A stretch of DNA of 64,000 bases, from positions 10,845 through 74,844 of the forward strand of contig JANPCG010000004.1 of the NCBI GenBank assembly GCA_031430855.1, given 5' to 3'. Positions 18,685 through 55,071 of the stretch are shown in pieces. Under the pieces are notes generated by a model that saw only the letters and a program-made list of their open reading frames with translations, had not been told where the DNA came from and made no database searches. Numbering within the stretch: the stretch's first letter is position 1; the number at the start of each line of letters is the position of its first letter. Source of the DNA: Candidatus Kaiserbacteria bacterium. Its GTDB lineage: Bacteria; Patescibacteriota; Minisyncoccia; Phycocordibacterales; UBA918. The position numbers and the translations under genes were made by a program.

Positions 18685-18783
18685 ATACGTACGAATGAAA
18701 GTAAGAATTGATAATACCTCCACAGTATATCATTTTAGTGCCCAAAATTTAATGAGTTCATGATATACTTTGGGGAATACACT

Positions 18784-19596
18784 ATGGGATTTTTTGACGC
18801 TATTTTACTGGGGTTAATTCAAGGAATAACTGAGTTTTTGCCGATTTCTTCAACGGGGCACTTAATTTTAATGCGTGAGCTTCTTGGTCTCCAGTCTGCT
18901 GGTGGTGAATTGGCGTTTGATGCCGTTCTTCATTTGGCGACGGCACTCGCTGTCATTATTTATTTCTCCAAAGATATTTGGAGCATTGCGCAGACTGCGC
19001 TGCGAAAGTTGGGACGGTTGCCCGTAAATCAGAAAGAACTGACGCTCTTCTATGCCCTTGCTATTGGAACTATTCCAGCCGTGGTGGTGGGAGTGTTGCT
19101 TGAGTCTACTATGGAAACAGCGTTCCGGTCACCCCTGTTGGTGGCAGGGGTTCTTGTTGCTGGTTCTCTCCTGTTCATTTATGCTGAATGGTTTATTTAT
19201 AATTCAGTGCCGAACAATACTGTTACGGTTAAAAAAGGAATCCAGATTGGTCTATTTCAGTGTCTTGCGTTAGTTCCCGGGATGTCTCGGTCGGGAGCCA
19301 CTATTGCAGGTGGTATGTTGTTAGGATTGTCACGAGTCGAAGCGGCACGATTTGCGTTTCTTTTGGCTGTACCGATTATGCTAGGTGCAGGAGGTAAAAA
19401 ACTCATTGAGTTAATTTCTTCACCAGCAACCGTGTCCTGGTTTCCGATACTGATTGGGGCGGTAGTGGCGTTTATTGTCGGATTATTGGCAATTCATTTT
19501 ATGCTAACGTTTGTGAGGCGACATACGTTGTGGCCGTTTATTTGGTATCGGTTACTTCTCGCGGCCTTCGTAGCTTACGTCTACCTCGTCGCGTAA
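18784..19596 (+). CDS. uppP: undecaprenyl-diphosphate phosphatase (BacA/UppP)
   Basis: MGFFDAILLGLIQGITEFLPISSTGHLIL…MSRSGATI…, the classic UppP motifs. The preferred start is 18784, because the track start at 18760 lies inside the TGATATACT -10 element at 18761-18769. Confidence 0.9.
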   Translation: MGFFDAILLGLIQGITEFLPISSTGHLILMRELLGLQSAGGELAFDAVLHLATALAVIIYFSKDIWSIAQTALRKLGRLPVNQKELTLFYALAIGTIPAVVVGVLLESTMETAFRSPLLVAGVLVAGSLLFIYAEWFIYNSVPNNTVTVKKGIQIGLFQCLALVPGMSRSGATIAGGMLLGLSRVEAARFAFLLAVPIMLGAGGKKLIELISSPATVSWFPILIGAVVAFIVGLLAIHFMLTFVRRHTLWPFIWYRLLLAAFVAYVYLVA

Positions 19597-37904: not shown

Positions 37905-39026
37905 ATGAAAGAAGCCTTTTCTTTAAAAGACCACCTGTTTAACCAAGCGTCAGTATCATATTTGGCTGATTTATTTGTGGCTACCGACCCGCAATTTAAT
38001 AAAAAGAAGTTTGTTGTTCAGGTAGTAGGTAGGTTTCCTCAATTAGAGCTCAAGGAGCGTATCGGATGGATTACCGAAGTGCTAAGTACCTATTTACCCA
38101 CGGACCCTGGTGCTGCGCTGAAACTAATCGTTGCTGCTCTACCTACTCCCTTAGATCCCAACAAAACCGATGATGATTTTGGAAGATTTATTTTTGCACC
38201 CTTGGGTGAGTTTGTGGTTCGATATGGCTGTACAAAAAAGTATCTAAAGCAATCGCTCGCCACCTTGAAGCAGTTGACGATGCGGTTTTCGATGGAGGAC
38301 GCAATGCGGACATTTTTGAATACCTTTCCAACCGAAACATTAGCCGAATATGACAGATGGGTCAACGATAAAAATTATCACGTTAGACGTTTGGTAAGTG
38401 AAAGTGCGCGACCGAGTTTACCGTGGTCTCAAAAAATTGGGATTGACTATAAGGTGGTTATAAAATATCCTGATCTTCTGTATGCGGATTCAACTCGGTA
38501 TGTCGTGCGTTCGGTCGCAAATCATCTGAACGATGTCAGTAAAAAAGATTCGGAACTGGTGGTATCGACACTCAAGCGCTGGCATAAAGAGAAAAACCAA
38601 AATCCACTCGAACTTGATTGGCTTACGCGACACGCGCTACGAACGCTGGTAAAGTGGGGAGACATAAAGGCTCTGGCACTCCTGGGGTATACTACACACA
38701 CGGTACCGGTCGTTTCAAACTTCGTAGTGCCTAAAAAAGTAGCAAAAGGTGATCGGTTGGTATTCTCTTTTGATGTAATCTCGAGCATTTCCCAAAACCT
38801 ACTGATTGACTACGTCATTGATTTTGTAAAATTAAATGGCACAACGAAACCAAAAGTATTTAAGATTAAAAAAATAATGGCACTCCCTAATGCCATTATT
38901 TCAGTTCAAAAAAATCATCATCTTAAAGCTGATGCAACTACCTTTAAACTCAATGCTGGAACCCATTGCCTCACGATTCAAATAAACGGCCAAAAATTAA
39001 CGACTGTCCAATTCGAGATTGTTTAA
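37905..39026 (+). CDS. DNA alkylation repair (AlkC/AlkD-like HEAT-repeat) family protein, tentative
   Basis: 373-aa predicted all-helical repeat protein. It has some family-like segments (…NDKNYHVRRLVSESARPSLPW…). An extended -10 box TGATATACT lies at about 37872. Its neighbour is an ATL protein. The assignment rests on weak sequence recollection plus context. Confidence 0.4.
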   Translation: MKEAFSLKDHLFNQASVSYLADLFVATDPQFNKKKFVVQVVGRFPQLELKERIGWITEVLSTYLPTDPGAALKLIVAALPTPLDPNKTDDDFGRFIFAPLGEFVVRYGCTKKYLKQSLATLKQLTMRFSMEDAMRTFLNTFPTETLAEYDRWVNDKNYHVRRLVSESARPSLPWSQKIGIDYKVVIKYPDLLYADSTRYVVRSVANHLNDVSKKDSELVVSTLKRWHKEKNQNPLELDWLTRHALRTLVKWGDIKALALLGYTTHTVPVVSNFVVPKKVAKGDRLVFSFDVISSISQNLLIDYVIDFVKLNGTTKPKVFKIKKIMALPNAIISVQKNHHLKADATTFKLNAGTHCLTIQINGQKLTTVQFEIV

Positions 39027-40172: not shown

Positions 40173-40688
40173 TTATTCTATGGGCTTCAGAACTTCGTAG
40201 GTCAGCCCCTTGAGGAGACCAATTTCTTCGGCAGAACGTCCGCCGCCAAGGGCTTCAAGAAGCCCTCTCGACAAATCGGGACGTTTGGTAACGTGTTCTC
40301 CGCCTCTGTCTTGCACCACTGCCAACCGGCTAATACCTGTGTTGGGATTGCTAATGCGCAAGATCGTTCCCTTGGGTAGGGAGTTAAAGGCGACAACGGT
40401 CACGTCACACTCGTGATAGAGCGTGCCTGAAGCCATGGGATTCCGGTTATGATACCGGCTGGCGTAGTAACTGCCGTCAGCCTTGAACGTTTTGACCGTT
40501 TCAAAACTTTTGGCTTCGAGATACGGATGACTGTCAAAGAGCACTTGGCACTGGGTGCCTTTTTTGTGCTGACTGAAGTCACGCTCGTATCCATGCCCCG
40601 GTTGAGGCTTCGCCACCGCACTACTGGCCGCCAGTGCAAGACTGACGGCAACGAGGGTAGTGACGAACTTACTTCGGATATTGAGCAT
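40173..40688 (-). CDS. RlpA-like double-psi beta-barrel protein (lytic transglycosylase-like), exported
   Basis: Signal peptide MLNIRSKFVTTLVAVSLALAASSAVA. The DPBB core is SYYASRYHNRNPMASGTLYHECDVTVVAFNSLPKGTILRISNPNTGISRLAVVQDRGG. An AAGGAG ribosome-binding site lies 7 nt upstream of the ATG at 40688; the track's 40760 start adds a basic, non-signal extension. Confidence 0.7.
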   Translation of the reverse strand: MLNIRSKFVTTLVAVSLALAASSAVAKPQPGHGYERDFSQHKKGTQCQVLFDSHPYLEAKSFETVKTFKADGSYYASRYHNRNPMASGTLYHECDVTVVAFNSLPKGTILRISNPNTGISRLAVVQDRGGEHVTKRPDLSRGLLEALGGGRSAEEIGLLKGLTYEVLKPIE

Positions 40689-40846
40689 TCCTATGCTCCT
40701 TCTATTGTTGCGGGTGCTTCTTTGGTCTTTTCTACACTCCTTCCGAACACTAAGACGCACGAACAGGAAAAGTCTTACAGAATCAGGGAGTGGAATAATA
40801 TGGCTTTAAATATGGCTTTTATCTCTATGTGGTACACTTACCCTAT

Positions 40847-41596
40847 ATGCGACTGCTGATATTTTTAGTAATTATTATCATATTTGCCCTTGTAATCTGG
40901 CTCACTGGTGCCTTGAGGCTGGGAAAAACCCTCTATCTGATCCTCCGAATTACCCCCTATGAACAAACGGTAACTGGGTCGCCAGCAATCCTCATTGTGG
41001 GAGATAGTACTGGGTATGGTACCGGAGCAGAAGTGGGTAAAGATAGTATTGCGGGTTTGATAGGGTCTGATTACTCGGCATACTCAGTCGTCAACCGAAG
41101 TAAAAACGGACGGACGATTGGGGAAGCGGTGGAAGAAATGAAAAAACTACCATCAGACGAACGATACGAACTAATAGTGTTACAAATGGGAAGTAACGAT
41201 ATTTTGCAGAAACGACCGCTCGATGTTGTAAGGAGCGATCTCTCATTACTATTCGCAATAGCGCTCGAGCATAGTGATCACGTGGTAATGATCACATGTG
41301 GAAACGTGGGTACCGCTTCGAGGTTTGCGGGTACGAAACGAGCGCTTGAGTACGAGCAGCTGACTCGTCTATATCGAGAAATGGTAATCCCTCTCGCGGC
41401 AGAATCCGGTGTGCGATACGTTGATTTATTTGAAGAGCCGGGGGTTGATATGTTTTTGCGTGAACCAAAAAAATATCTCTCTATCGACGGCCTGCACCCA
41501 AGTAGTGCCGGGTATGCCTATTGGTACGAGCGCTTGCAGCCAGCCCTCGTCAGTATGCTTCCGCGTACTCCTACCACCACGCCATCCAACCCTTGA
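40847..41596 (+). CDS. SGNH/GDSL-family hydrolase, membrane-anchored
   Basis: Block I ILIVGDSTGYG, block III NRSKNGRT, block V LQMGSNDIL…DGLHPS, and an N-terminal TM helix. Confidence 0.75.
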   Translation: MRLLIFLVIIIIFALVIWLTGALRLGKTLYLILRITPYEQTVTGSPAILIVGDSTGYGTGAEVGKDSIAGLIGSDYSAYSVVNRSKNGRTIGEAVEEMKKLPSDERYELIVLQMGSNDILQKRPLDVVRSDLSLLFAIALEHSDHVVMITCGNVGTASRFAGTKRALEYEQLTRLYREMVIPLAAESGVRYVDLFEEPGVDMFLREPKKYLSIDGLHPSSAGYAYWYERLQPALVSMLPRTPTTTPSNP

Positions 41597-42251
41597 GCGC
41601 CTGAATAATTCCTTGCGATTCTGTTTTGGCGAGATCAGCTACTTCACACGTGAGTCCACAGCTTTCAGTCGGTGGTACGCCTTTTTCGGGACAGGTGCCC
41701 GAATACATACAGGCCATTTCTGTAATTTCTCCGACGTATTTTTGAATATTAGAGTCAGCAGGGTCTCCGTAGTAGAGTAAAATCCGGTCTTCTTCGTTAA
41801 TTATATAGTCGGTAATATTGGTAACGCGTTCGCCATTCACTATTAAAAGTAGGGAATTAGTGCCCTTAGAGCAGTGTTGTGTGCCGGTATCTTCAGTAAA
41901 GCAGTCGTTTGTCAGCTTCATTCCAATTGAATCAAAAAAATCAGTGAGGGTTACGCCATCAGCATGGCGATGAATAACTTCATCGTTACCATCGTGGAAA
42001 TGAAGTGATGCGTGATGGGTAAGTTCAGGATTAGACTGATAACGCGGATCGGTAAAGCGTAGTCGGATGTCCCCAACATAAACGCGAACGTCAGAATGAA
42101 CATGTACTTCGGTGTCGGTACTTGTTGCTATGGGATGAGTAGTACTGCTCCTTAAAGTGCCAAGGGCATAGGCGCCGAGCAGTAATGTAAAAAGTCCAGC
42201 CAAAAGAGCCTTAACGTTAGTCTGGCGTAATGATGATGTTATTTTATTCAT
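41571..42251 (-). CDS. exported His-rich hypothetical protein
   Basis: N-terminal signal/TM segment (…LLAGLFTLLLGAYALG). Multiple His clusters (HVHSDVRVYVGD, THHASLHFHDG, IHRHADG) suggest metal binding. Its 3' end overlaps the convergent SGNH gene by 26 nt. Confidence 0.5.
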   Translation of the reverse strand: MNKITSSLRQTNVKALLAGLFTLLLGAYALGTLRSSTTHPIATSTDTEVHVHSDVRVYVGDIRLRFTDPRYQSNPELTHHASLHFHDGNDEVIHRHADGVTLTDFFDSIGMKLTNDCFTEDTGTQHCSKGTNSLLLIVNGERVTNITDYIINEEDRILLYYGDPADSNIQKYVGEITEMACMYSGTCPEKGVPPTESCGLTCEVADLAKTESQGIIQALKGWMAWW

Positions 42252-42288
42252 GATACCTACATAGTAATCCTAATTGGAGTTGCGTCAA

Positions 42289-43164
42289 TTAAAAATTGGT
42301 ATCCCGATACAGGGTATTCTCAACTAACGTAAACGTGGCCACTCCGAGCTGTTCAGTGCTGGCAATTGCTTCAAATTGGTCGGGAGGCATAATTAACGCT
42401 ACGGTTGCAAAAGCGTCGGCATCCCGTGCCGTGGGTGCTTTTATAAATGTCGCATCAGCTATTAATAGATTATCGCTCTCAGTAATAATATGAGAATAAA
42501 CTTTTCCGTCTGTTTTCCAGGTTCGTTTATGTGGACTACTGGCCGCAAATCCCTGATTACGTATGGTGGTGGTTTCTATATAAGTAGTTGGTTCAGTTGG
42601 ATGTTCCAGGTAGATGGTTATCGGTTGATCATTTTCACTCGTTGCAAACATGTCACCTCCACCATTAATGAGGAAGTAGGAGAGCTGGTGTTGGTTTTGT
42701 AGATATTCAGCCAGGAGATCAATGACGTAGCCTTTACCAAATCCGCCAATATCAACCTGTCCTGTATGTAGGGTAATCTGTTCCGGTCTAATCGTTAGCG
42801 AATTATGGGGCGAGGGAAGGGGAGTCGTAAACGCCTTGCCAACAAAAGAGTAGGTACTATCGTAGCCGTGCGCACTCAGTTTTTCACCAATCATCACGTT
42901 AAATTTACCCTGCGTACGGTCAAATAACGTAATCCCATAGGTGAGGAGATTAATAAATTCAGTCGGAGGATTAATGAGAACTCCCGTCAGATTAAGCTGA
43001 CTTATGAGTGAATCGGGTCGAAATCGTGAGTACCGTTGTTCAAATTCCGACAGCAAAAACTCACAGCCATTTACTGTGGCGGCGCGCTTCACATCAGAAA
43101 TGTCATCAAATATTTCAATCCACCACCGGGTCCCCAGAGCATCGATGGTAAACGGAAGAGACAT
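42289..43164 (-). CDS. apbE: FAD:protein FMN transferase (ApbE family)
   Basis: ApbE signatures …IGGFGKGYVIDLLAEYL…FLINGGGDMFATSE… in a roughly 290-aa product. Confidence 0.85.
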   Translation of the reverse strand: MSLPFTIDALGTRWWIEIFDDISDVKRAATVNGCEFLLSEFEQRYSRFRPDSLISQLNLTGVLINPPTEFINLLTYGITLFDRTQGKFNVMIGEKLSAHGYDSTYSFVGKAFTTPLPSPHNSLTIRPEQITLHTGQVDIGGFGKGYVIDLLAEYLQNQHQLSYFLINGGGDMFATSENDQPITIYLEHPTEPTTYIETTTIRNQGFAASSPHKRTWKTDGKVYSHIITESDNLLIADATFIKAPTARDADAFATVALIMPPDQFEAIASTEQLGVATFTLVENTLYRDTNF

Positions 43165-43168
43165 TCGT

Positions 43169-43768
43169 TTAGAGGCGGGCGTCAGCTGCTACTTCGACCA
43201 AAGCCTTATTGAATGCTCCGGTAGTGAGTGAAGCGCCTCCCACTCGAGAGAGTGAAATACTTTCAAGGCTCTTTCCCAACACTTGTGCTTTGTAGGCATC
43301 ACTAAATTTCTTTTGGTAGTTGGTCGAGGTGTCAGCAGTCTCACCACTATAGGTTACGTTACTTGCGGTTACGATGTCGTTTGCGAGAGTGAGCGAAACA
43401 TTTATCTCGTGTGTTGTTCGACTCGGAGCGACGTAGGTGGTTGTGACATTGTAGGTGCCATTTTTGAATGTTGTGGCGGGTGCAACCGATGTTGTTACTG
43501 GCTTACTGACAGGCGGGGTGGAAGGAGTGGTTAGAGTCGTTTCCGGTTTTGTGGTGGGTGTAACTGGTGCCGTCGTTGTGGTTTCAGTTGTAACGACGGT
43601 ATTGGTTTCTACAGGGGTTGAAGTTGGAGTTTCAATCGCTGGGGCAGTGTCTTCTACTCGGGTGATTGGTGTAGTTGTGGCAGGTTTTGGGCCAGATAAA
43701 TAATACCCACCAAGACCGAGAGCGACCAAGATTCCTACAATGACAAGAACAAATGGCATACAATACAA
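43169..43768 (-). CDS. membrane-anchored Thr/Pro-rich protein with a C-terminal FMN-binding (FMN_bind) domain; likely ApbE flavinylation substrate
   Basis: N-terminal TM helix, a roughly 80-aa T/P-rich linker, then an FMN_bind-like domain (GTYNVTTTY…ETADTSTNYQKKFSDAYKAQVLGKSLESISLSRVGGASLTTGAFNKALVEVA) with an SGAT-like GGAS flavinylation motif. It lies 4 nt downstream of apbE. Confidence 0.6.
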   Translation of the reverse strand: MYCMPFVLVIVGILVALGLGGYYLSGPKPATTTPITRVEDTAPAIETPTSTPVETNTVVTTETTTTAPVTPTTKPETTLTTPSTPPVSKPVTTSVAPATTFKNGTYNVTTTYVAPSRTTHEINVSLTLANDIVTASNVTYSGETADTSTNYQKKFSDAYKAQVLGKSLESISLSRVGGASLTTGAFNKALVEVAADARL

Positions 43769-43851
43769 AAAATTATATTAGTTAACGTGCATAGTATATC
43801 GTATTGCGATAGTGGTGCCAAACGAAGTGTGTTTTCTGATATACTTTTACT

Positions 43852-45363
43852 ATGAAAATACTTACGTACCCAGTACCGGTAATTGAATCCTGGATTGATC
43901 GTACTAATATGTATCTCATCGTGCTCTATGGCCTTGGTGGCATGTTTTTGTATGCGTTTGTGCTCTCGCTGGTCGGTAGTCTTTCCGTCACTCCAGGACC
44001 ATTAATTGCTTCAGTTCTGGTACTTATGTTGAGTGCTGGAATTACCAGCGTCGTGAGTGGAAAAATTGCCGGCGTCACCGCCCATCATCCATCATCAGTT
44101 ATTACGGCACTGATCCTGTTTTTTTTAATGAGCCCTGCCACCACGACCAATGAATATTTGGTACTGGCTGCTGTTGCGGCGCTCGCAGTGATCTCAAAAT
44201 ATGTTTTTAGCTATCGCCGACAACATATTTTTAATGCCGCAGGGCTCGCTGTTTGGTTGATGGCACTTCTTGGCTATGGTGCAGCGTCCTGGTGGGTAGG
44301 TACTCCCTTGTTATTTGTTCCCCTGCTTGTAGCTGGAGTCATGGTAGTAACTAAAGTACGAGCCTGGCCACTCGTACTGTCTTTTCTCGGTGTTGGATTT
44401 ACTACTTTCCTGTTTGAAGAGTGGCGTTTTGGGAATGATTTCACCGCAACGTGGTCGATTTATTTTCTCGCGTACCCAACGCTGTTTCTGGGTTTTTTTA
44501 TGCTTACTGAACCGTTTACACTGCCACCGACGCGGTCGCTAAAGATGGGATACGGTGCCCTCGTTGGATTTCTGTCGAGTACCGCTCTCTTTGTCCCGTT
44601 TCTTACAATGACTCCCGAGCTTGCACTTTTGCTCGGTAACCTCGTTGCCTATCCCTATACGTTACGGCGCAAGCTGTATCTCTCGTTTATTTCAAAACGT
44701 GAGATTGGGCCACTTCTGTATGAGTATACGTTTGAAAAACCAGCCGGGTTTACTTTTAAGTCGGGTCAATACCTAGAGTGGATGCTCCCTCATGCTAAGG
44801 TGGACGGTCGCGGAATTCGTCGTTACTTTACTATTCTCTCGTCAGCAACCGAACCAGTGGTCAGGCTGGCATGCAAAGTACCTGCCCTGGGGAGTAGTTA
44901 CAAGCGGGCGCTCGAGGAGTTAAATAAAGGAGACAGCATCATTGCGAGTCAGTTGGCAGGTGATTTTTTACTGCCACAAGACCCACATAAAAAAATTGCT
45001 TGGGTGGCGGGAGGGATTGGTGTTACTCCGTTTGTGAGTCAATCAAATTGGCTCCAAGCAACCAATATAAAATGTAATATTATTTTATTGTATGCGGCTT
45101 ATACTACTGAAGAACTGGTCTACCAGGATGTTCTCGAAAAATCAGCCACTCTCATTCCTGTGCTCGCTCAGGGAGTAGTTCCCGGTTCTGAATCAGGGTA
45201 TATCACGGCAGACATAATCGCTCGGCGGACACCTGATTTTAAAGAACGTACGTGGTACATTTCCGGTCCTCCCGGTATGGTGTCGGCTACCGCTATAGCG
45301 CTTCGTTCGCTCGGTGTGTCGAAGCGACGGATTGTTAAAGATTTCTTCCCCGGTTTGGCCTAA
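43852..45363 (+). CDS. integral-membrane oxidoreductase: N-terminal polytopic TM domain fused to a ferredoxin-NADP reductase-like FAD/NAD(P)-binding domain
   Basis: About 270 aa with 8-9 TM helices, then the FNR-like module: FAD-binding RRYFTILSS (RxYS), NAD-binding GGIGVTP, C-terminal WYISGPPGMV. Divergent from the apbE operon. Confidence 0.75.
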   Translation: MKILTYPVPVIESWIDRTNMYLIVLYGLGGMFLYAFVLSLVGSLSVTPGPLIASVLVLMLSAGITSVVSGKIAGVTAHHPSSVITALILFFLMSPATTTNEYLVLAAVAALAVISKYVFSYRRQHIFNAAGLAVWLMALLGYGAASWWVGTPLLFVPLLVAGVMVVTKVRAWPLVLSFLGVGFTTFLFEEWRFGNDFTATWSIYFLAYPTLFLGFFMLTEPFTLPPTRSLKMGYGALVGFLSSTALFVPFLTMTPELALLLGNLVAYPYTLRRKLYLSFISKREIGPLLYEYTFEKPAGFTFKSGQYLEWMLPHAKVDGRGIRRYFTILSSATEPVVRLACKVPALGSSYKRALEELNKGDSIIASQLAGDFLLPQDPHKKIAWVAGGIGVTPFVSQSNWLQATNIKCNIILLYAAYTTEELVYQDVLEKSATLIPVLAQGVVPGSESGYITADIIARRTPDFKERTWYISGPPGMVSATAIALRSLGVSKRRIVKDFFPGLA

Positions 45364-45420
45364 GCGAGTACGAAGTTGATGACTGCGCGATGTATACTTG
45401 AACGAGGATTGTATCATTGT

Positions 45421-46758
45421 ATGAAATTTTCACTCACTAACTCAATCGCCATTGAAACGAGCGTTATAACTACGCAGGGACTTTCTTTGGCGGGATACAT
45501 TACTCAGCTACGCACAGTGGCTGACACCGGTAGTTATGGCGCACTGGAGTCGTCAATTAATTTACCCGCTGATGATGATTTATTAGATCAGGTAGAAAAA
45601 TTAGCGGTATCGTTTATTACTCCTGACTTACGATTTGTATTTGTGATTGGAATCGGAGGTTCAAACTTAGGTACCAAAGCAATCTATGATGCGCTGTATG
45701 GTGCTCGTGATGTTACAGAGCACAGTAAACCCAAATTAATTTTTGTTGATACCAATGACGCTGCCCTCCTCACTGCCTATCGAGACTTGATTTGGTCGTG
45801 CACTCATGCGACGGAGTGTCTCCTTATTAGCGTCAGTAAATCAGGTGGTACCACCGAGACGTTGGCAAACACCGAAATCTTGCTGGGAGTATTCCGGGAG
45901 AAATGGAAAACTGATACTGACCGCCTCGTGGTGATTGCAGATGCAGAATCTCCCTATGGAGTAGCTGCTCGCGCGAAGGGAATCGCGACACTCACGATGC
46001 CAACTATTGTAGGTGGCCGCTTCTCAGTTCTTTCGGCAGTCGGATTATTCCCACTCGCGATAATGGGGCTTCCTATCAAAGAGTTGCATGCTGGTGCTGC
46101 TGAGCTCAGATTAAAATGTATCCATCCTGATATTGCTCATAATCCTGCAGCACAATCCGCTTTAGTATTGGCCGCTTGTTATGAAAAGGGAATGGTTATT
46201 CATGATACGTTTGTGTTTCAGAGTGGATTAGAGTCACTTGGTTTTTGGTATCGACAATTGTTGGGTGAAAGTATTGGTAAAGAACAGAAAACGGGAGAGC
46301 TGGTTGGGATTACTCCGACGGTATCAGTTGGTTCAACGGATCTTCATTCTGTTGGTCAGTTGTATCTCGGTGGTCCTCGTGACAAAATCACTTCGTTTGT
46401 GTTTGGAACGTTTGATCATCAGATGCCCAAAGTGCCACAAGAACGGCGCGTTTTTCCCGAGCTCGTGCCTATGATTGCGGGAAAATCAACCGACACGATT
46501 ATGAGCGCAATCTTGGCCGGTACTAAAGTGGCCTATAATAATCGAAAACTGCCGTTTATGGAGGTAGAATTAGAGGGAATTACTCTCCATGAGTTGGGTG
46601 CATTTATGCAATTCAAAATGATTGAAGTAATGTACCTTGGTCATCTTCTTAAGGTTAATCCCTTTGATCAACCGGCAGTAGAACTGTATAAAATAGAGAC
46701 AAAAAAGATTCTCGAGATACCGGAGCCCGTAGTGCTGACAGCTGGTGATGTTGCCTAA
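45421..46758 (+). CDS. pgi: glucose-6-phosphate isomerase
   Basis: SIS-domain signatures (…LISVSKSGGTTETLAN…, GGRFSVLSAVGL) and C-terminal catalytic region. The start is uncertain (45376 or 45421). Confidence 0.85.
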   Translation: MKFSLTNSIAIETSVITTQGLSLAGYITQLRTVADTGSYGALESSINLPADDDLLDQVEKLAVSFITPDLRFVFVIGIGGSNLGTKAIYDALYGARDVTEHSKPKLIFVDTNDAALLTAYRDLIWSCTHATECLLISVSKSGGTTETLANTEILLGVFREKWKTDTDRLVVIADAESPYGVAARAKGIATLTMPTIVGGRFSVLSAVGLFPLAIMGLPIKELHAGAAELRLKCIHPDIAHNPAAQSALVLAACYEKGMVIHDTFVFQSGLESLGFWYRQLLGESIGKEQKTGELVGITPTVSVGSTDLHSVGQLYLGGPRDKITSFVFGTFDHQMPKVPQERRVFPELVPMIAGKSTDTIMSAILAGTKVAYNNRKLPFMEVELEGITLHELGAFMQFKMIEVMYLGHLLKVNPFDQPAVELYKIETKKILEIPEPVVLTAGDVA

Positions 46759-46791
46759 GACGGCAGTGTATTTATGATACACTGACAATAT

Positions 46792-47037
46792 ATGAGAGAA
46801 TCACACCGCCGAAGTATTGCTAAAGGTATCACCTGGAGAATTGTAGCGTCCGTAACCACGATGGTGGTTGTTTTTGTTATTACTGGCGACTTGGCCTTAA
46901 TGGCAAGTGTGGGGTTTGTTGACGTGACCTTTAAAATCCTTTTTTACTACTTGCACGAACGGTTTTGGGGCAGGGTACACTGGGGACTCTTGGGGACAGA
47001 GCCAAATCTCAGTTCAGATTCTCCTACTAAGTCCTAG
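46792..47037 (+). CDS. DUF2061-type small membrane protein
   Basis: RRSIAKGITWRIVASVTTMVVVFVITGDLALMASVGFVDVTFKILFYYLHERFWGRVHW matches the DUF2061 pattern (R.S..K..TWR…TT…TG…YY.HER.W). It sits immediately upstream of the atp operon. Confidence 0.55.
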   Translation: MRESHRRSIAKGITWRIVASVTTMVVVFVITGDLALMASVGFVDVTFKILFYYLHERFWGRVHWGLLGTEPNLSSDSPTKS

Positions 47038-47116
47038 GTTTGTCACCAGGAATGCTTTGCACTCCGTAGTATCTCTGGTATGATGCGGGCGGCGCCTTGA
47101 ATGTGCCAAAAAAGCC

Positions 47117-47902
47117 TTGATTTATATGTTTGGAATTGCAACCGCATACGCTGCCGAAAGTGGAATTCACGTTAAACTCGCTCCCTATATTGTGGGCGAG
47201 TTCCTGGGCGTGCCAATTACGGCCACAATGCTCACTACGTGGCTTACTATGGTACTCTTGATTGGTGTAGCGATACTTGTTAAATCAAAACTTGCTGTCG
47301 TGCCAGGTAAACTACAAAGTTTATTTGAACTGATTATTGGTTACGTATACGATTATATGAGTGAGGTGCTTGAGAGTCGAACACTGGCTCGAAAATACTT
47401 TCCGATTGTCATGACGATATTCCTCTTCGTGTTGGCCCTTAACTGGGTGGGACTACTTCCGGGGGTAACATCAATTGGTCTGTATGAAGTGCATGACGGG
47501 ACAAAGCACTTCACACCGCTCTTGTACCCGGCTGCTACCGATCTTAATATCACGATTGCTTTTGCTATCATTGCGTTTTTCACTATTGAAATTGCTGGTG
47601 TACTGGCGATTGGGTTCTTTAAGTACACCGGCAAGTTCATTAACTTTAAATCTTTCGGCGGTTTTGCCTTAGGGTTGCTTGAACTAATTTCAGAACTAGC
47701 GCGGTTGGTATCGTTTTCATTCCGTTTGTTTGGAAACATCTTTGCGGGCAAGACCCTCTTGGTGGTAGTCATGTTTTTTGTGCCATTCATTATCCCGGTA
47801 CCACTCGTCGCGTTTGAAGTTTTTGTAGGATTTATCCAGGCATTTGTGTTTGCGATTCTGACCTTGTTTTTCATCAAACTGGCGGTGGAAGAACCACATT
47901 AA
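47117..47902 (+). CDS. atpB: F0F1 ATP synthase subunit a
   Basis: Five TM helices and the conserved Arg region …FSFRLFGNIFAGKTLLVV…. Confidence 0.85.
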   Translation: MIYMFGIATAYAAESGIHVKLAPYIVGEFLGVPITATMLTTWLTMVLLIGVAILVKSKLAVVPGKLQSLFELIIGYVYDYMSEVLESRTLARKYFPIVMTIFLFVLALNWVGLLPGVTSIGLYEVHDGTKHFTPLLYPAATDLNITIAFAIIAFFTIEIAGVLAIGFFKYTGKFINFKSFGGFALGLLELISELARLVSFSFRLFGNIFAGKTLLVVVMFFVPFIIPVPLVAFEVFVGFIQAFVFAILTLFFIKLAVEEPH

Positions 47903-48001
47903 GAAAGTTAGTAAATAATCACGAGTTCCATGGATTCATGTATCTCGTACTTGTTTGGTAACAGTAAATTAATAATTGTAGGACTTACAGAAACGAGTGC
48001 A

Positions 48002-48086
48002 ATTCGAGGCGTCCAAGTAAAATATTACGAGACGTACATTAGTACGGTGAGAAATATTTTACGCCGGACAACAAAGAAGTGCTCCG
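48002..48086 (-). repeat. Intergenic repeat element copy L (reverse orientation) between atpB and atpE
   Basis: The reverse complement reads cggagcacttctttgttgtccggcgtaaaatatttctcaccgtactaatgtacgtctcgtaatattttacttggacgcctcgaat, showing the family core and flanks. Confidence 0.6.
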
Positions 48087-48110
48087 TTTATGTAAGTGCT
48101 GCCTAAGTAA

Positions 48111-48380
<270 letters not shown>

Positions 48381-48490
48381 TTTCCGCGAAATTGGCGAAC
48401 TGCTGCGCTGCGGTAAAATTTTTACTCACCGTGTAAAAATACGGCTCGCAAAATTTTCCTTGCACGCCTTGCATTTCATCCAATTCAGCG
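48381..48490 (+). repeat. Intergenic repeat element copy E, directly 3' of atpE
   Basis: …ctgctgcgctgcggtaaaatttttactcaccgtgtaaaaatacggctcgcaaaattttccttgcacgccttgcatttcatcc. Confidence 0.7.
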
Positions 48491-48589
48491 AAAATTACTC
48501 CTGCTCTGAGCTTGTTTAAAAATAATTTAAACTTAGAGCTAAAGTTGGGAACACGCTCTCATTATTAGTTAAGCTCATTGCAAGATTGT

Positions 48590-48675
48590 CTGAGATTCGC
48601 GAAGTACAAAAGAAATAATTTGAGACGTACTTTTCGTACGACGAAAATAATTTCTTGCAGTACGACAAAGAAGAT
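48590..48675 (+). repeat. Intergenic repeat element copy K, 5' of atpF
   Basis: aataatttgagacgtacttttcgtacgacgaaaataatttcttgcag. It aligns with copy G (aataattttcaacgtatcaaaagtacgtctcaaataattttcctcgc). Confidence 0.55.
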
Positions 48676-48709
48676 TAGATGATATTGCAATGAGCGCTCT
48701 CTCACTGCT

Positions 48710-49162
48710 ATGGAAGATATCGTAAAAGCTTTTGGTATCGACGGTCGTTTGATCTTCATTCAAATCGTAAACTTTGCCATTTTGATGGTGGCCCTGGTGT
48801 ACTTCTTGTACAACCCAATCTTGAACATGCTTAAAGCGCGTGAAGACAAGATTATAGAGGGGATTAAAGATGCCGAAGCCGCCGCCGTAGCAAAAGCTCA
48901 AGCTGACGCTGAGAAAAAAGTCATTTTGACTGACGCTCATACTGAAGCAGTGGCGGTAAATGCCCGTGCTAAATCAGCGGCGGATGCGACCGCGAGCGAC
49001 ATTGTGGCAAAGGCGCAAAGTGACGCTGCTGCAGTAATTGCGGAAGCGGCGGTGAAAGCCGAACAGTTAAAGGCACAGGCCGAACGCGATAGTGCTGCCG
49101 AGATTGCCAAAACTGCCATTCTGGCAGCTGAGAAAATCCTGACCCAAAAGAACGCATCATAA
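48710..49162 (+). CDS. atpF: F0F1 ATP synthase subunit b
   Basis: Single N-terminal TM helix followed by a long Ala/Lys/Glu-rich coiled-coil (AEAAAVAKAQADAEKK…). Confidence 0.8.
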   Translation: MEDIVKAFGIDGRLIFIQIVNFAILMVALVYFLYNPILNMLKAREDKIIEGIKDAEAAAVAKAQADAEKKVILTDAHTEAVAVNARAKSAADATASDIVAKAQSDAAAVIAEAAVKAEQLKAQAERDSAAEIAKTAILAAEKILTQKNAS

Positions 49163-49165
49163 TTT

Positions 49166-49549
49166 ATGAAAGATACCTACGTTCATGCAGTATTAGAACT
49201 GTTATCTTCCGGTGAATCGGCTGAGACTGTTTTAGTAAACCTCAAAAAGGTTCTGGCAGCGCGGGGACATAGTAAATTACACGCCAGCATACTTAGCAGT
49301 CTTGCTACCAAGCTGCAATTGGAGACAGAGCACAATCTACCAAAAGTTGTACTAGCTAAAGAGGGGAGTGTCAGTGAAGCTGAAATCAAACGTGCCCTGA
49401 GTACGCTCAGTGCACCAAATGATAATTATAGTGTCACTTATAATCCTAATATTATTGGTGGACTCATCGCTACCTTTCAAAGTAAACAACTAGACCAAAG
49501 TTACCAAACCAAGCTACGTGAATTATATCAATCAATTATCACCGCCTAA
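49166..49549 (+). CDS. atpH: F0F1 ATP synthase subunit delta (OSCP), shortened form (127 aa)
   Basis: The C-terminal …IGGLIATFQSKQLDQSYQTKLRELYQS matches the delta C-terminal domain, and the gene sits between b and alpha. It is about 50 aa shorter than the typical roughly 177 aa. Confidence 0.7.
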   Translation: MKDTYVHAVLELLSSGESAETVLVNLKKVLAARGHSKLHASILSSLATKLQLETEHNLPKVVLAKEGSVSEAEIKRALSTLSAPNDNYSVTYNPNIIGGLIATFQSKQLDQSYQTKLRELYQSIITA

Positions 49550-49562
49550 TTATTATAAATAT

Positions 49563-51128
49563 ATGAGCACCACCATTATTGACCGAATTAAAAAAGAAAT
49601 CGCCGCTTTGGATGTTACTGTTACCCCAAAAGAAATAGGTACGGTAACTGCCGTATCTGACGGTATCATTGAAATCTCTGGCTTAACTTCAGCCAAGGTG
49701 ATGGAAATGGTGGTGTTTGGTGTGGGTGAGGGAGCGACTCTCGAAACTGCCCTCAAGCAAACAACTGTTCTCTATGGTCTCGTACTTAACCTCGAGGAGG
49801 ATGTGGTGAAGGTGGTGGTGCTTGGTGAAAGTGCTGGCATCCGTGAAGGGATGACGGTGTTCCGTACCAACACGCTACTTTCTGTACCTGTTGGTGATGG
49901 CATTGTCGGGCGAGTGGTCAATGCCCTTGGTGAAATGATTGATGGTAAAGGTGCAATCACGACTGATAAAAACATGCCGATTGAACGGGTAGCCTATGGC
50001 GTGATGGATCGTTCATCGGTAAACGAACCAATTCACACGGGGATCAAAGCAATTGATTCTATGATTCCAATTGGACGTGGTCAGCGTGAACTTATTATTG
50101 GTGACCGTGGTACTGGGAAAACAACCATTGCGATTGATACTATCATCAACCAAAAGTACGAACCAAAAGAGAAACGACCAATTTGTATTTATGTAGCTAT
50201 TGGTCAGAAGCGTTCAAAAACTGCCAACATCATGGCCCAGCTCGAGAAAGCGGGTGCGATGGAATACACGACTATCATCGCCACGTCAGCGTCTGAAGCT
50301 TCGCCACTCTTGTTCCTTGCTCCATTTACGGGCATGGCGATTGGTGAGTACTTTATGGAGCAAGGTCGTGATGTTTTGATTATTCTTGACGACCTGAGTA
50401 AACACGCGGTAGCGTACCGACAGATGTCACTCTTGCTCCGTCGCCCACCAGGACGTGAAGCCTACCCCGGAGACATCTTTTACCTTCACTCACGTCTCCT
50501 CGAGCGATCAGCAAAATTATCAGCCGAACTCGGCGGCGGCTCAATCACTGCCTTGCCAATTATCGAAACCCAAGAAGGTGACGTGTCGGCGTACATTCCA
50601 ACCAACGTCATTTCAATTACTGACGGGCAGATTTTCCTTGAAACTGATCTCTTTAACAAGGGTATTCGTCCAGCCTTGAACGTCGGTATTTCAGTATCGC
50701 GTGTGGGATCAAGTGCCCAAACCAAAGCGATGAAGGCGGTGGCGGGGAAGATTCGTCTTGAGCTTGCTCAGTTCCGCGAACTGGAAGCCTTTATGCAATT
50801 TGCCTCTGATCTAGATGCCGATACAAAAGCTCGTATCGACAGTGGTCGCAAATATGTAGAGATGCTCAAGCAAACGCAAAACAACCCGATGCCGTTCTAC
50901 AAACAAGTGGTATCTATTTATGGAGCGAACACCGGATTGTTCGATGGAGCTGACCCAAAAAATGTGCGCGCGATTGAAGACTCGTACCAAGCCTTCATCC
51001 TTCGTGACCGCAAGGACATGCTCGATACTATCGAAACAACCCGCGCTCTGTCTGACGAACTCAAGGCCGACCTTGATACATCAATTGTTGATTTCAAAGA
51101 AGCGAATAGTAACTTGTACACTGCGTAA
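49563..51128 (+). CDS. atpA: F0F1 ATP synthase subunit alpha
   Basis: Walker A GDRGTGKT and extensive alpha-subunit identity (…ELIIGDRGTGKTTIAIDTIINQ…, AYRQMSLLLRRPPGREAYPGDIFYLHSRLLERSAK). The preferred start is 49563 (MSTTIIDRIKKEI…). Confidence 0.95.
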   Translation: MSTTIIDRIKKEIAALDVTVTPKEIGTVTAVSDGIIEISGLTSAKVMEMVVFGVGEGATLETALKQTTVLYGLVLNLEEDVVKVVVLGESAGIREGMTVFRTNTLLSVPVGDGIVGRVVNALGEMIDGKGAITTDKNMPIERVAYGVMDRSSVNEPIHTGIKAIDSMIPIGRGQRELIIGDRGTGKTTIAIDTIINQKYEPKEKRPICIYVAIGQKRSKTANIMAQLEKAGAMEYTTIIATSASEASPLLFLAPFTGMAIGEYFMEQGRDVLIILDDLSKHAVAYRQMSLLLRRPPGREAYPGDIFYLHSRLLERSAKLSAELGGGSITALPIIETQEGDVSAYIPTNVISITDGQIFLETDLFNKGIRPALNVGISVSRVGSSAQTKAMKAVAGKIRLELAQFRELEAFMQFASDLDADTKARIDSGRKYVEMLKQTQNNPMPFYKQVVSIYGANTGLFDGADPKNVRAIEDSYQAFILRDRKDMLDTIETTRALSDELKADLDTSIVDFKEANSNLYTA

Positions 51129-51140
51129 TAAAATACTACT

Positions 51141-52046
51141 GTGGCACTCAAACAAATTAAAAACAAAATAATTTCGACCAAGAAAACTGGTAAGGTAACC
51201 AAAGCCATGGAGGCGGTGTCGGCAGTTAAAATGCGCAAGAGTCAGGCGCGTGCCTTTGATAGTCGTCCGTATATACATGCGGCGATGCGGATTTTAGCGC
51301 GGCTTTCACAATCGGGGGATGTGACAACCCATCCACTTGCGCAAAAGCGAGATACTGCGAAGAAACTAGTGGTGATGGTCACGAGTGACAAAGGTCTAGC
51401 GGGGAGCGTTAATAGTGCCATTATTAAAACGGTTGAGATGATGGTGCGAGCAGGTGAGCAGTTTGACGTCATAACGATTGGTCGCAAAGCGACTGAGTTT
51501 GCTGCGCGAGCTAACCTCGCGAATCTTGGTCAATTCAATAATGTGAGCGATGACGTAACAGTTGCAGATGTATACGCCATGGCTGATGTAGCCTTATCTT
51601 CATACAAAGCCGCGGAAACTTACAGCAAAGTTGAGGTAATCTACCAGAACTTTATCTCAACGTTTGAACAAGAACCAACCATACGTCAAATTCTCCCCCT
51701 TGATCCTGCCGAAATTCACTACATCATGCAAGGTATCAAACCCAAGGTCGGGAAATTCAGTGACTCAGTTGTATCGGCAGATAACGTCATTAATTACGAA
51801 ATCGAACCAACCGCTTCCGCTGTGCTTGATGTCCTCATTCCACAGCTTGTCCAAATTATGCTTTTCCATGCCTTACTTGAGAGTAAGGCGTCCGAGCATA
51901 GCGCCCGTATGGTCGCTATGAAAAATGCCACCGACAAGAGTAAGGAAGTAACAAAGTTCCTAACGCTAAAATACAACAAAGCCCGCCAAGCTGCGATTAC
52001 GGCTGAGGTGGCTGAAATTACTGGCGGTATGGAGGCACTTAAGTAA
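51141..52046 (+). CDS. atpG: F0F1 ATP synthase subunit gamma
   Basis: N-terminal MALKQIKNKIISTKKTGKVTKAMEAVSAVKMRK and C-terminal …YNKARQAAITAEVAEITGGMEAL gamma signatures. Confidence 0.9.
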   Translation: MALKQIKNKIISTKKTGKVTKAMEAVSAVKMRKSQARAFDSRPYIHAAMRILARLSQSGDVTTHPLAQKRDTAKKLVVMVTSDKGLAGSVNSAIIKTVEMMVRAGEQFDVITIGRKATEFAARANLANLGQFNNVSDDVTVADVYAMADVALSSYKAAETYSKVEVIYQNFISTFEQEPTIRQILPLDPAEIHYIMQGIKPKVGKFSDSVVSADNVINYEIEPTASAVLDVLIPQLVQIMLFHALLESKASEHSARMVAMKNATDKSKEVTKFLTLKYNKARQAAITAEVAEITGGMEALK

Positions 52047-52050
52047 TAAT

Positions 52051-52374
52051 ATGAAAAATAAATCAACACAAACTCATATTTTTAATATAGTACTCGATGA
52101 CATGTATTTTTTTCATATCGCCGGACTGTCTACGTTGGCATGGATTTTTTCGACAATTCTCTTGATATTTATCTTAGGTAAAGAAGTAGTTGCACTATAT
52201 TTGATACTAGCTTTTACGTACCCAATTGCTTTAATAATTCAGTTGTTTCTTTTATATACAGTTTCGTATTTTAAGAAAAAAAATATGATGAACCAACTAA
52301 AATTTGCATCACTTTTGTCTATAGCCTGTTTGCCAATAGCGGTTCTCGTTTCTTACATAATGGTTTTCATGTAA
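52051..52374 (+). CDS. hypothetical small membrane protein inserted between atpG and atpD (AT-rich)
   Basis: 107-aa ORF with three hydrophobic segments. By eye it is markedly more AT-rich than the flanking atp genes. No ribosome-binding site. It breaks the conserved atpG-atpD adjacency. Confidence 0.4.
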   Translation: MKNKSTQTHIFNIVLDDMYFFHIAGLSTLAWIFSTILLIFILGKEVVALYLILAFTYPIALIIQLFLLYTVSYFKKKNMMNQLKFASLLSIACLPIAVLVSYIMVFM

Positions 52375-52383
52375 CGGTTGTAG

Positions 52384-53868
<1,485 letters not shown>

Positions 53869-53874
53869 CAATAG

Positions 53875-53980
53875 TGGGCAATCTGCCTTGTTGTACTTCG
53901 CGAAATAACTTTCATCGTATAAAAATACGCCTCAAATGATTTCACTCGCACGCCTCGCATCTCACCCACTCTAGCTCCAC
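53875..53980 (+). repeat. Intergenic repeat element copy F, directly 3' of atpD
   Basis: …ctgccttgttgtacttcgcgaaataactttcatcgtataaaaatacgcctcaaatgatttcactcgcacgcctcgcatc… (CGTAT/ATACG variant of the core hairpin). Confidence 0.65.
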
Positions 53981-54018
53981 CTGATTTCTTGGCAACTAAA
54001 AATAATGTTAAAAATATT

Positions 54019-54264
54019 ATGGCAAAACTATTAAAATTGACGATATCTAAGGTTGATGCTCCCGTATTTGACGGGGACGTGGTTTCGGTGACGGTCCCCG
54101 GAACTGAAGGGGAGATGACGATTCTTGCTGACCACACGGCGCTTATTTCCGTGCTAAAGCCTGGAATGATTACGGTGGTGACAGAAGGAGGTGCTAAAGA
54201 GACTTTTGAAACAAGTAGTGGAACAATCGAAATCAGTAACAACCACGCTACTGTTTTAATCTAG
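54019..54264 (+). CDS. atpC: F0F1 ATP synthase subunit epsilon, N-terminal beta-sandwich domain only (81 aa)
   Basis: MAKLLKLTISKVDAPVFDGDVVSVTVPGTEGEMTILADHTALISVLKPGMITV… is the typical epsilon N-terminal domain. The C-terminal regulatory helices are absent. The track's 53989 start is an alternative. Confidence 0.7.
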   Translation: MAKLLKLTISKVDAPVFDGDVVSVTVPGTEGEMTILADHTALISVLKPGMITVVTEGGAKETFETSSGTIEISNNHATVLI

Positions 54265-54375: not shown

Positions 54376-55071
54376 ATGGATAAAAATAAAGTCGCCATGA
54401 TAGCGGTTGGAGCTTTTATATTAGGTGGTTTGGGTGTGGCGGCAGTCGGAAATATGGGCGGACATGGCTGGAATCGTGGTTATGAAAATGATAGCGGTCG
54501 AGAGTGGGGGATGGGTGATATGATGCATGGCGACTATCGAACTGTAGACCGCATAGATGATACTTCTAACAAAAATGATACAGGTATGATGGGTGACAGC
54601 AATATGGGAATGGGGAACATGCACGATATGAATATGATGGTGCAAAGTGAACGAGAATTTCTCCAGGCGATGATACCTCATCACGAGGAAGCAATTTCAA
54701 CCGCCAAAGAAGTAGTGGAGCGTGGAGGGTCTACGGCAGAAATAAAGACACTCGCCGAAAATATTATTAAGGCCCAAGAAAAAGAAGTGCTGGATATGAA
54801 AACGTGGTACAAAAATTGGTATGGTACTGACTACGTTGCTGATGGAAAGTATAAGCCAATGATGCGAACACTTTCTAATCTTTCTGGAGCTGAACTGGAT
54901 AAGGTGTTCTTAAGTGATATGATCATGCACCATATGGGAGCGATTATGATGGCGCAAAGTGTCTCATCTCACATTGAACATCAAGAGATGACAACACTCG
55001 CTCAGAATATCAAAACAACCCAAAGTGATGAGATAACACAGATGCAAAATATCCTTAAAACGTTAAACTAA
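54376..55071 (+). CDS. DUF305 family protein with a Met/His-rich N-terminal region (putative copper-handling), exported or membrane-anchored
   Basis: N-terminal hydrophobic segment. A Met-rich stretch (MGDMMHGDY…MMGDSNMGMGNMHDMNMM). Two DUF305 repeats with HH motifs (FLQAMIPHHEEAI…; FLSDMIMHHMGAIMMAQ). Confidence 0.65.
   Translation: MDKNKVAMIAVGAFILGGLGVAAVGNMGGHGWNRGYENDSGREWGMGDMMHGDYRTVDRIDDTSNKNDTGMMGDSNMGMGNMHDMNMMVQSEREFLQAMIPHHEEAISTAKEVVERGGSTAEIKTLAENIIKAQEKEVLDMKTWYKNWYGTDYVADGKYKPMMRTLSNLSGAELDKVFLSDMIMHHMGAIMMAQSVSSHIEHQEMTTLAQNIKTTQSDEITQMQNILKTLN

Follow-up and report, generated by a model that had tools for sequence, protein, structure and literature searches.

A putative divergent NQR/RNF-like flavin locus with a predicted NAD(P)H-to-outside electron route in a Candidatus Kaiserbacteria contig

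The locus and its closest described counterpart

The closest described counterpart of the locus treated here is the NQR/RNF-like system, defined operationally by Méheust 2021 (eLife, PMC8238504) through a gene lying within five genes of an ApbE or FMN_bind gene and reported from the candidate phyla radiation, Actinobacteria and Chloroflexi. The same 2021 survey found flavinylation to be under-represented in the candidate phyla radiation (PMC8238504). A Ktedonobacter complex of this kind was subsequently modelled by AlphaFold-multimer (Huang 2024, PMC10979944), leading to the proposal that the flavin mononucleotide (FMN) of the NqrC/RnfG-like subunit samples a vacated non-covalent flavin site; in the membrane subunit of the system, the Thr that is flavinylated in NqrB/RnfD is not retained (PMC10979944). 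Here, we analyse a 64,000-nucleotide stretch of Candidatus Kaiserbacteria contig JANPCG010000004.1 (hereafter, the window), in which four adjacent genes encode a predicted fusion of an RnfD-like membrane domain with a ferredoxin-NADP reductase (FNR)-type module (RnfD::FNR), an FMN_bind-like subunit, an ApbE-type flavin transferase and a His/Cys-rich protein. Judged from homology and gene arrangement, the locus is a divergent member of the already described NQR/RNF-like system: the ApbE gene lies two genes from the RnfD::FNR gene, and the divergent neighbour of the latter is the FMN_bind-like gene, within the five-gene distance of the published rule. The features discussed below are the following, with the basis of each assignment in brackets.

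41571-42251, minus strand: His/Cys-rich exported or anchored protein, 226 aa (list of open reading frames, ORFs)
42289-43164, minus strand: ApbE-type FAD:protein FMN transferase, 291 aa, without a signal peptide (PF02424)
43169-43768, minus strand: putative NqrC/RnfG-type FMN_bind subunit, 199 aa, anchored by a transmembrane (TM) segment (profile-profile comparison)
43229-43231, minus strand: predicted FMN-attachment codon, Ser180 in SLSRVGGA-S (alignment register and translation)
43769-43851, no strand: divergent intergenic region, 83 bp, with two -10-like boxes (consensus matches only)
43852-45363, plus strand: predicted RnfD::FNR fusion protein, 503 aa (Pfam, relatives and AlphaFold2 model)
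43852-44676, plus strand: NqrB/RnfD-like membrane domain, aa 1-275, predicted N-in/C-in (hhalign, motifs and K/R count)
44269-44304, plus strand: short outside loop LGYGAASWWVGT, aa 140-151, in place of the ~70-aa RnfD/NqrB loop (RsxD alignment)
44677-45363, plus strand: predicted cytoplasmic FNR-type FAD/NAD(P)H module (NCBIfam, PDB and Foldseek)
44818-44832, plus strand: motif RRYFT of the FNR module (translation)
45010-45030, plus strand: motif GGIGVTP of the FNR module (translation)

All four ORFs are intact, and the ORF list confirmed the coordinates and strands given for them by an earlier model-made reading of the bare letters (the sequence-only reading). The motifs quoted there are likewise all present, as SLSRVGGAS, RRYFT and GGIGVTP. 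In agreement with the 4-nt spacing given there, the ApbE ORF begins 4 nt past the stop of the gene for the 199-aa protein; the two genes are in different frames, and with this 4-nt spacing an ApbE-substrate fusion or a hidden upstream start was ruled out. The His/Cys-rich gene follows ApbE after 37 nt on the same strand, and the RnfD::FNR gene is divergent from the other three across the 83-bp spacer. The minus strand of this spacer contains a promoter-like TTGGCA-17-TATACT, and its TAGTATA and TGATATA boxes are kept in relatives, in both cases as consensus matches only. When a shared operator such as a Rex-like palindrome was sought in the divergent intergenic region, the -10-like boxes alone proved to be conserved. 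An identical copy of the window sequence lies within contig JAYTDW010000006.1 (assembly GCA_043735715.1). Where sources name them, the closest homologues, including those of the RnfD::FNR protein, come from Patescibacteria, Paceibacteria or Kaiserbacteria.

Domain assignments within the three-gene cassette

Homology and structure prediction assign the 503-aa protein as an NqrB/RnfD-like membrane domain of ten helices followed by a C-terminal NqrF/FNR-type FAD/NAD(P)H module. Pfam NAD_binding_1 (PF00175) is matched with E=6e-6 (27.3 bits against a cutoff of 22) and NQR2_RnfD_RnfE (PF03116) with E=7.2e-6 (26.0 bits, below the cutoff of 27.7), accompanied by weak NqrB and RsxD matches in NCBIfam. 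Both Pfam families are matched by 20/20 aligned relatives, the best PF03116 match among them having E=1.1e-13. A database search at E<=1e-5 retrieved >2,600 homologues, of which the best 120 are full length, show 45-72% identity and mostly carry precomputed PF00175 and PF03116 assignments; some sources call such proteins "RnfABCDGE subunit D" or "ferredoxin-NADP reductase/RnfD". The membrane-domain profile aligned with E. coli RsxD at 94.6% hhalign probability (E=6.5e-8, 198 columns) and retrieved nothing from PDB sequences at E<=1. The sequence-only reading had held that the TM domain was not recognisable as NqrB/RnfD, a view refuted by the PF03116 match, its recurrence in every aligned relative and the RsxD alignment.

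The conserved motifs of the membrane domain are HxSxxITxLI, SKxxxxRxQHxxNxAA, WW, FMLTEPFTxPP and PELALxxGN. The RsxD loop of ~70 residues that carries the flavinylated Thr (SQAT187) corresponds to a gap in the alignment of the window family, so that the membrane domain lacks a covalent-FMN site; the loop LGYGAASWWVGT (aa 140-151) found in its place is variable among relatives. The GYGAAS stretch was also considered as a covalent-FMN site of the TM domain and ruled out, since this loop is variable and corresponds to the RnfD-loop deletion. The deleted loop and the subunit homologies were found independently here and agree with the Huang 2024 model. Across the alignment of relatives, H125 is the sole invariant His of the membrane domain, which argues against a bis-His haem route. 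The sequence-only reading had put forward a search for a haem site in this domain, and no second invariant His was found there beside H125; haem-based transfer of the NOX or MsrQ-like type, which needs two conserved His pairs, was accordingly rejected.

The AlphaFold2 model of the 503-aa protein (pLDDT 84) places about ten helices before residue 270. Counting K/R in the predicted loops gave 15 inside versus 1 outside, and by this positive-inside distribution both termini and the FNR module are therefore predicted to be cytoplasmic, with the loop at 140-151 outside. The FNR module matches the corresponding modules of FNR, NqrF and flavohaemoprotein reductases by sequence (NCBIfam and PDB sequences) and by structure, with Foldseek E-values of 1e-13 to 1e-16 against NqrF FAD domains, FNRs and flavohaemoglobin. 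The NOX proteins retrieved by Foldseek align with this same module. RRYFT and GGIGVTP are invariant among the aligned relatives.

The 199-aa protein consists of an N-terminal hydrophobic anchor (aa 1-27), which looks uncleaved, a ~70-aa Thr/Pro-rich linker and a C-terminal domain of ~95 residues (aa ~100-199). It has no Pfam match at E<=0.1, including FMN_bind (PF04205). Iterative searches separated the partner proteins of related loci into two subtypes. Subtype A bears the canonical VDIISGATxTS motif and passes Pfam FMN_bind with 34-42 bits. Subtype B, comprising the proteins of the window, its close relatives, Saccharibacteria and Actinomycetota, bears SLSRVGGASLTT, KVSGSSLTP or KVAGSSLSS in the motif position and scores 15-22.1 bits against PF04205, or nothing, at a cutoff of 22. 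Aligned profile to profile, subtype B matches subtype A with 96.8% hhalign probability (E=2.9e-10), and this alignment sets Ser180 of GGA-S opposite the Thr of VDIISGA-T. A weak alignment to E. coli RsxG (TGAT) puts Ser180 in the same register, and the position is occupied by S or T in 27/27 relatives. From the match between subtypes, the RsxG register and the S/T in all relatives, we infer that the 199-aa protein is a divergent FMN_bind subunit of the NqrC/RnfG type, to which FMN is predicted to be attached at Ser180. An FMN_bind domain with a flavinylation site had been claimed by the sequence-only reading: the profile comparison and the Ser at the modification site uphold the claim, and the direct Pfam FMN_bind match is missing. 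Identification of subtype B with the FMN-bind2 of Huang 2024 was rejected, as that domain has ~160 aa versus ~95 aa here.

Signs of export are distributed across the partner proteins. In most lineages K/R occur on the N-side of the anchor, S/T/P-rich linkers are present, and the Actinomycetota partners carry a lipoprotein lipobox (VLASC or LGAGC). To judge from domain content, multi-flavin versions of the partner may exist in some lineages. In locus L088 (5165-6304) the RnfD::FNR gene and ApbE are separated by two FMN_bind-like genes in tandem, and locus L039 (460-1371) encodes a single 303-aa protein with two FMN_bind-like domains (GGAT and GQAT).

The enzyme gene is assigned to the ApbE-type FAD:protein FMN transferases by its PF02424 match (E=1.9e-34) and by comparison with E. 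coli ApbE, relative to which GT, TxG, GKG, GGD, S209, R214, H225 and AD..T are all kept. The ~35-residue lipoprotein leader of E. coli ApbE is absent: the window protein has no hydrophobic segment and begins 9 residues ahead of the conserved ALGT strand. This leaderless state is common to 119/120 of its closest relatives in a large protein collection, and every ApbE adjoining a full-length RnfD::FNR gene that was examined is without a signal peptide or anchor. Neither Méheust 2021 (PMC8238504) nor Huang 2024 (PMC10979944) mentions leaderless ApbEs in such clusters. Two forms of the enzyme occur. The long form (287-308 aa, starting near A(L/I)GT) goes with FMN_bind subtype B, whose motif reads G(G/S)(A/S)S, and the short form (~245 aa, with an MGMPITVEV start and without a ~50-residue insertion) goes with subtype A. 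That the two forms track the FMN_bind subtypes suggests co-evolution of the enzyme and its substrate motif.

Co-conservation, genomic setting and the His/Cys-rich protein

The same gene set recurs in close relatives of the window and was further followed in a sample of 26 distant loci with a full-length RnfD::FNR relative. FMN_bind, ApbE and RnfD::FNR genes occur together in 19/26 of these loci, spanning four phyla, with carriers in several Patescibacteria groups, Chloroflexota (Ktedonospora and Anaerolineales), Actinomycetota and metagenome-assembled genomes (MAGs) labelled Alphaproteobacteria. The distant cassettes are mostly collinear, with genes adjacent or overlapping, and in the window lineage FMN_bind and ApbE, as a pair, run opposite to the RnfD::FNR gene. 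Complete cassettes were also observed on long Alphaproteobacteria-labelled contigs, in L014 (a Mesorhizobium MAG, 1.1-Mb contig), L010 and L022; these carriers lie outside the phyla emphasised in the 2021 description. Conservation of the locus in relatives, which the sequence-only reading had left to be checked, is thus borne out in both close and distant genomes.

Downstream of the RnfD::FNR gene on the same strand (45376-54200, plus), the window encodes pgi, a small DUF2061 membrane protein and the F1Fo ATP synthase operon. The order RnfD::FNR-pgi-DUF2061-atp is kept in the close relatives L001, L004, L005 and L087, with a P-type cation ATPase inserted ahead of pgi in L005. On the other side, a GDSL-lipase gene (40829-41596, plus) is convergent with the His/Cys-rich gene, their 3' ends overlapping by 26 nt (41571-41596), and this pairing recurs in L001, L004 and L087. 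Further out lie a conserved 373-aa protein with no Pfam family (37905-39026, plus), syntenic in L001, L004, L005 and L087, and a 195-aa exported protein without a Pfam match (40173-40760, minus); the L005 gene at the position of the latter matches the RlpA-like DPBB_1 domain. Among the genes of the 64-kb window we found no further Nqr or Rnf subunits, no respiratory chain and no genes of Listeria-type extracellular electron transfer (EET), namely Ndh2 with a C-terminal anchor, EetA/EetB, a DmkA-type quinone supply or PplA-type parts. Both a full NQR/RNF complex and Listeria-type EET were rejected as identities of the locus, as their subunits are absent from the window; the analogy with the Listeria system drawn in the sequence-only reading did not hold.

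The fourth gene encodes a 226-aa protein with an N-terminal anchor or signal bearing K/R on its N side. No relative of it was found in Pfam, NCBIfam or PDB, including a PDB profile search, and no significant Foldseek PDB match was obtained. Its AlphaFold2 model has a pLDDT of 82, and the Foldseek matches are weak. No fold family was assigned: the transcobalamin beta-domain (DUF4430-like fold) and the local HxHxD of a metallo-beta-lactamase family protein are weakly similar (E>=0.03). The family has a conserved core of HxHxD, YQS, HxHD..D.VxHxH and six Cys, and an exhaustive HMMER scan (E<=1e-3) placed 1,438 representative clusters within it. Among the top 150 clusters, 22 carry a fused DsbA-like thioredoxin domain, two or three a P-type ATPase (one with an HMA domain and thus CopA-like) and one a multicopper oxidase. 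These fusions point to an extracytoplasmic role of the family in metal handling, probably of copper, and/or in thiol redox. The broad family alignment contained no stretch conserved enough to scan with.

A scan with another alignment of the family yielded 25 loci; apart from the module, their neighbours vary (including UDG, YceI and housekeeping genes) and give no function from context. The His/Cys-rich gene adjoins the flavin module in eight loci of the window lineage, one of them rearranged (L088, where it is convergent to the RnfD::FNR gene), and is absent from the distant modules sampled. Its link to the module is lineage-specific, confined to one Patescibacteria lineage. The inclusion of a His-rich protein in the module by the sequence-only reading therefore stands in part: the exported or anchored gene is present, and its family is usually found elsewhere in the genome.

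Two other parts of the window may touch on this family. A stand-alone DsbA-like thioredoxin gene lies beside bacA, encoding undecaprenyl-diphosphatase (17944-18723, minus; 18760-19596, plus), and may be relevant given that the family is often DsbA-fused and has six conserved Cys. Immediately downstream of the atp operon comes a gene for a DUF305 protein (54376-55071, plus). DUF305, which we take to include the copper-binding CopM, makes this product a possible second envelope copper protein of the window.

Proposed electron route, alternatives and relation to known systems

The locus probably specifies an Nqr/Rnf-like complex of two subunits and the flavin transferase acting on it, and so provides an electron route from NAD(P)H to the outside. 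The 503-aa protein would oxidise NAD(P)H on the cytoplasmic side, at its FNR-type FAD module, as the fold and motifs of this module indicate. Electrons would then cross the membrane through the NqrB/RnfD-like domain, probably by way of a non-covalent flavin, as NqrB links the riboflavin and FMN sites, and would reach an FMN covalently bound to Ser180 of the 199-aa subunit, to which ApbE would attach it. Since the RnfD-like domain is without the flavinylation loop, the pocket left vacant on the outside is probably filled by the flavin of the tethered FMN domain, as proposed from the Huang 2024 AlphaFold-multimer model. The ~70-residue Thr/Pro linker would let the FMN domain pass electrons on to acceptors outside the cell, so that, overall, a fermentative organism would gain a one-way outlet for electrons from NAD(P)H to the outside. 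In this Patescibacteria lineage the His/Cys-rich protein, presumably co-transcribed, is the best candidate for the immediate acceptor or metal partner, through Cu(II)/Fe(III) reduction or a thiol/metal relay, a role that we put forward tentatively.

The outward route is carried by domain identities, motifs, the deleted loop, the charge-bias topology and co-conservation, and the sequence-only proposal of a flavin-based path from NAD(P)H to the outside as one co-conserved module is supported in this form. Several points weigh against it. The direction of flow, the cofactor content, the preference for NADH or NADPH, the docking of the subunits, the acceptor and the place of flavinylation in the cell are all inferred, and our literature search found no experimental study of the NQR/RNF-like system. 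The scores of the window proteins for both PF03116 and FMN_bind fall below the Pfam thresholds, the attachment motif is GGAS, not [S/T]GA[S/T], and a Ser stands at -6 in place of Asp. In addition, the His/Cys-rich family is found mostly away from flavin modules, most of its sampled loci being without one, and the simple model leaves unexplained how an ApbE lacking an export signal would meet a substrate domain predicted to lie outside. It is possible that flavinylation occurs in the cytoplasm before the C-terminal domain is threaded out, Ser180 lying 19 residues from the C-terminus, or that ApbE is exported by a non-classical route.

A third explanation of the leaderless enzyme is that the whole module faces the cytoplasm, so that ApbE would flavinylate the FMN domain inside the cell and electrons would shuttle from the FNR module to the membrane domain or to a cytoplasmic or membrane acceptor, with no export. 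It would accommodate an ApbE without a signal or anchor here and in 119/120 close relatives, as well as the anchor of the window-lineage FMN_bind protein, which begins as early as residue 1-3 and has no preceding K/R, and cytoplasmic ApbEs with cytoplasmic substrates are known (PMC12052999). However, K/R precede the anchor in most lineages, the Actinomycetota partners carry a lipobox, S/T/P-rich linkers are typical of exposed proteins, and NqrC and RnfG are periplasmic. The positive-inside count also puts the site of the deleted RnfD loop, with the flavin pocket thereby left vacant, on the outside, and this is the face on which the subunit is docked in the published multimer model (PMC10979944). 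We regard an inward-facing module as improbable.

NqrB and RnfD are generally understood to be implicated in ion translocation in NQR and RNF, and in the window and its close relatives the RnfD::FNR gene is followed by pgi and the F1Fo atp operon, with a 697-aa protein of a Na+/H+ exchanger family encoded elsewhere in the window (12659-14752, minus). The module might on this basis be a minimal redox-driven translocator coupling NAD(P)H electron flow to Na+ or H+ movement and feeding the adjacent ATP synthase. Such coupling appears highly improbable: homologues of NqrD/E or RnfA/E are absent from the window, as is a return path to a cytoplasmic or quinone acceptor; the atp synteny is limited to one lineage, whereas the three-gene cassette stands alone in other phyla; and outward electron transfer alone builds no inside-negative potential. 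That the genes are adjacent by chance, or form a decaying locus with no functional unit, is scarcely credible, as nothing beyond the sub-threshold Pfam scores speaks for it and it is contradicted by synteny, the ORFs being intact, the catalytic and cofactor motifs conserved and the cassette present in four phyla.

A different question is whether the His/Cys-rich protein belongs to the outward route at all. It could be a bystander with an unrelated metal or disulfide role in the envelope, leaving the module to feed Fe(III), free flavins, O2 or host surface components. The size of the family (1,438 clusters, with most sampled loci lacking the module and having heterogeneous neighbours) and the distant modules without the gene agree with this, as does the association of a few clusters with VIT1 iron transport in Méheust 2021 (PMC8238504). 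On the other hand, the gene stays beside the module in eight loci of the lineage, including the rearranged L088, and trails ApbE by 37 nt on the same strand in the window. We give the bystander explanation a chance approaching even, and the protein remains a candidate acceptor or partner of the flavin module at a somewhat lower level of confidence. A combined scenario, which we consider rather unlikely, would have Ser180 flavinylated in the cytoplasm by the leaderless ApbE, with the domain then threaded across the membrane to reduce a previously undescribed family of His/Cys-rich metalloproteins in this lineage, giving Patescibacteria an NAD(P)H-driven outlet for Cu/Fe or thiol redox. With Ser180 located 19 residues from the C-terminus, the site would be exposed for cytoplasmic flavinylation only when translation ends. 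If this scenario were true, flavinylation before threading would remove the need for FAD export, and flavin-based extracytoplasmic electron transfer would be a common rather than a rare trait of the candidate phyla radiation, one that filters based on signal peptides and Pfam have overlooked.

To our knowledge, Patescibacteria have no known respiratory chain. A widely conserved three-gene flavin wire leading from NAD(P)H to the outside would therefore be among the few membrane redox devices of this group. Leaderless cluster ApbEs with an exported substrate, and a large unannotated His/Cys-rich family, go beyond the published papers, and either the leaderless enzyme or the recurrent attachment of the His/Cys-rich gene could change the view of the flavinylation step and of the terminal acceptor.

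Among known systems, the MsrQ-like and PepSY-like flavinylation systems with C-terminal NAD-binding domains, together with the NOX/ferric-reductase superfamily, resemble the locus in fusing a cytoplasmic FNR-type module to a membrane domain and in sending electrons outward to a flavinylated protein or metal. Those proteins use bis-His haem b, whereas the TM domain here is homologous to RnfD and has a single invariant His, so that transfer is probably flavin-only. Listeria-type EET (FmnB, PplA, Ndh2, EetA/B and DmkA) shares an ApbE-flavinylated, surface-tethered FMN protein as the outlet of a fermentative monoderm. The locus differs from it in having no Ndh2, quinone or EetA/B; moreover, PplA is a lipoprotein with two FMN_bind domains, and FmnB is an exported lipoprotein, in contrast to the leaderless ApbE here. 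Compared with Na+-NQR and Rnf, the membrane domain is homologous to NqrB/RnfD, the FMN_bind subunit to NqrC/RnfG and the C-terminal domain to the FAD/NAD module of NqrF, and covalent FMN would likewise depend on ApbE. NqrA/D/E and RnfA/B/C/E are missing from the locus, as are Fe-S centres and the semicircular path that returns electrons to quinone or ferredoxin, and the B/D-like domain offers no site for covalent FMN; relative to NqrF, the 2Fe-2S domain is absent and the FNR module is fused straight to the membrane domain.

The agreement is closest with the NQR/RNF-like system, with which the locus shares an NqrB/RnfD-like domain fused to a PF00175 module, an NqrC/RnfG-like anchored FMN_bind subunit, a clustered apbE and the loss of the flavinylation Thr from the RnfD-like subunit. 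It differs in its divergent FMN_bind subtype (GGAS, no Pfam match), which is paired with a distinct, longer ApbE clade; in a substrate-ApbE operon that is divergent from, not collinear with, the RnfD::FNR gene; in the attached His/Cys-rich fourth gene; in a PF03116 score just under threshold; and in the apparent lack of a cleavable signal peptide in either target gene. Because its ApbE has no signal peptide, its FMN_bind domain fails PF04205 and its PF03116 match is under threshold, the published detection rules would probably miss this locus. The NQR/RNF-like system has been defined only computationally, and divergent members of this kind would escape those rules. Such misses may help to explain the low flavinylation count for the candidate phyla radiation in the 2021 survey, and the frequency of the system in that radiation may have been underestimated.

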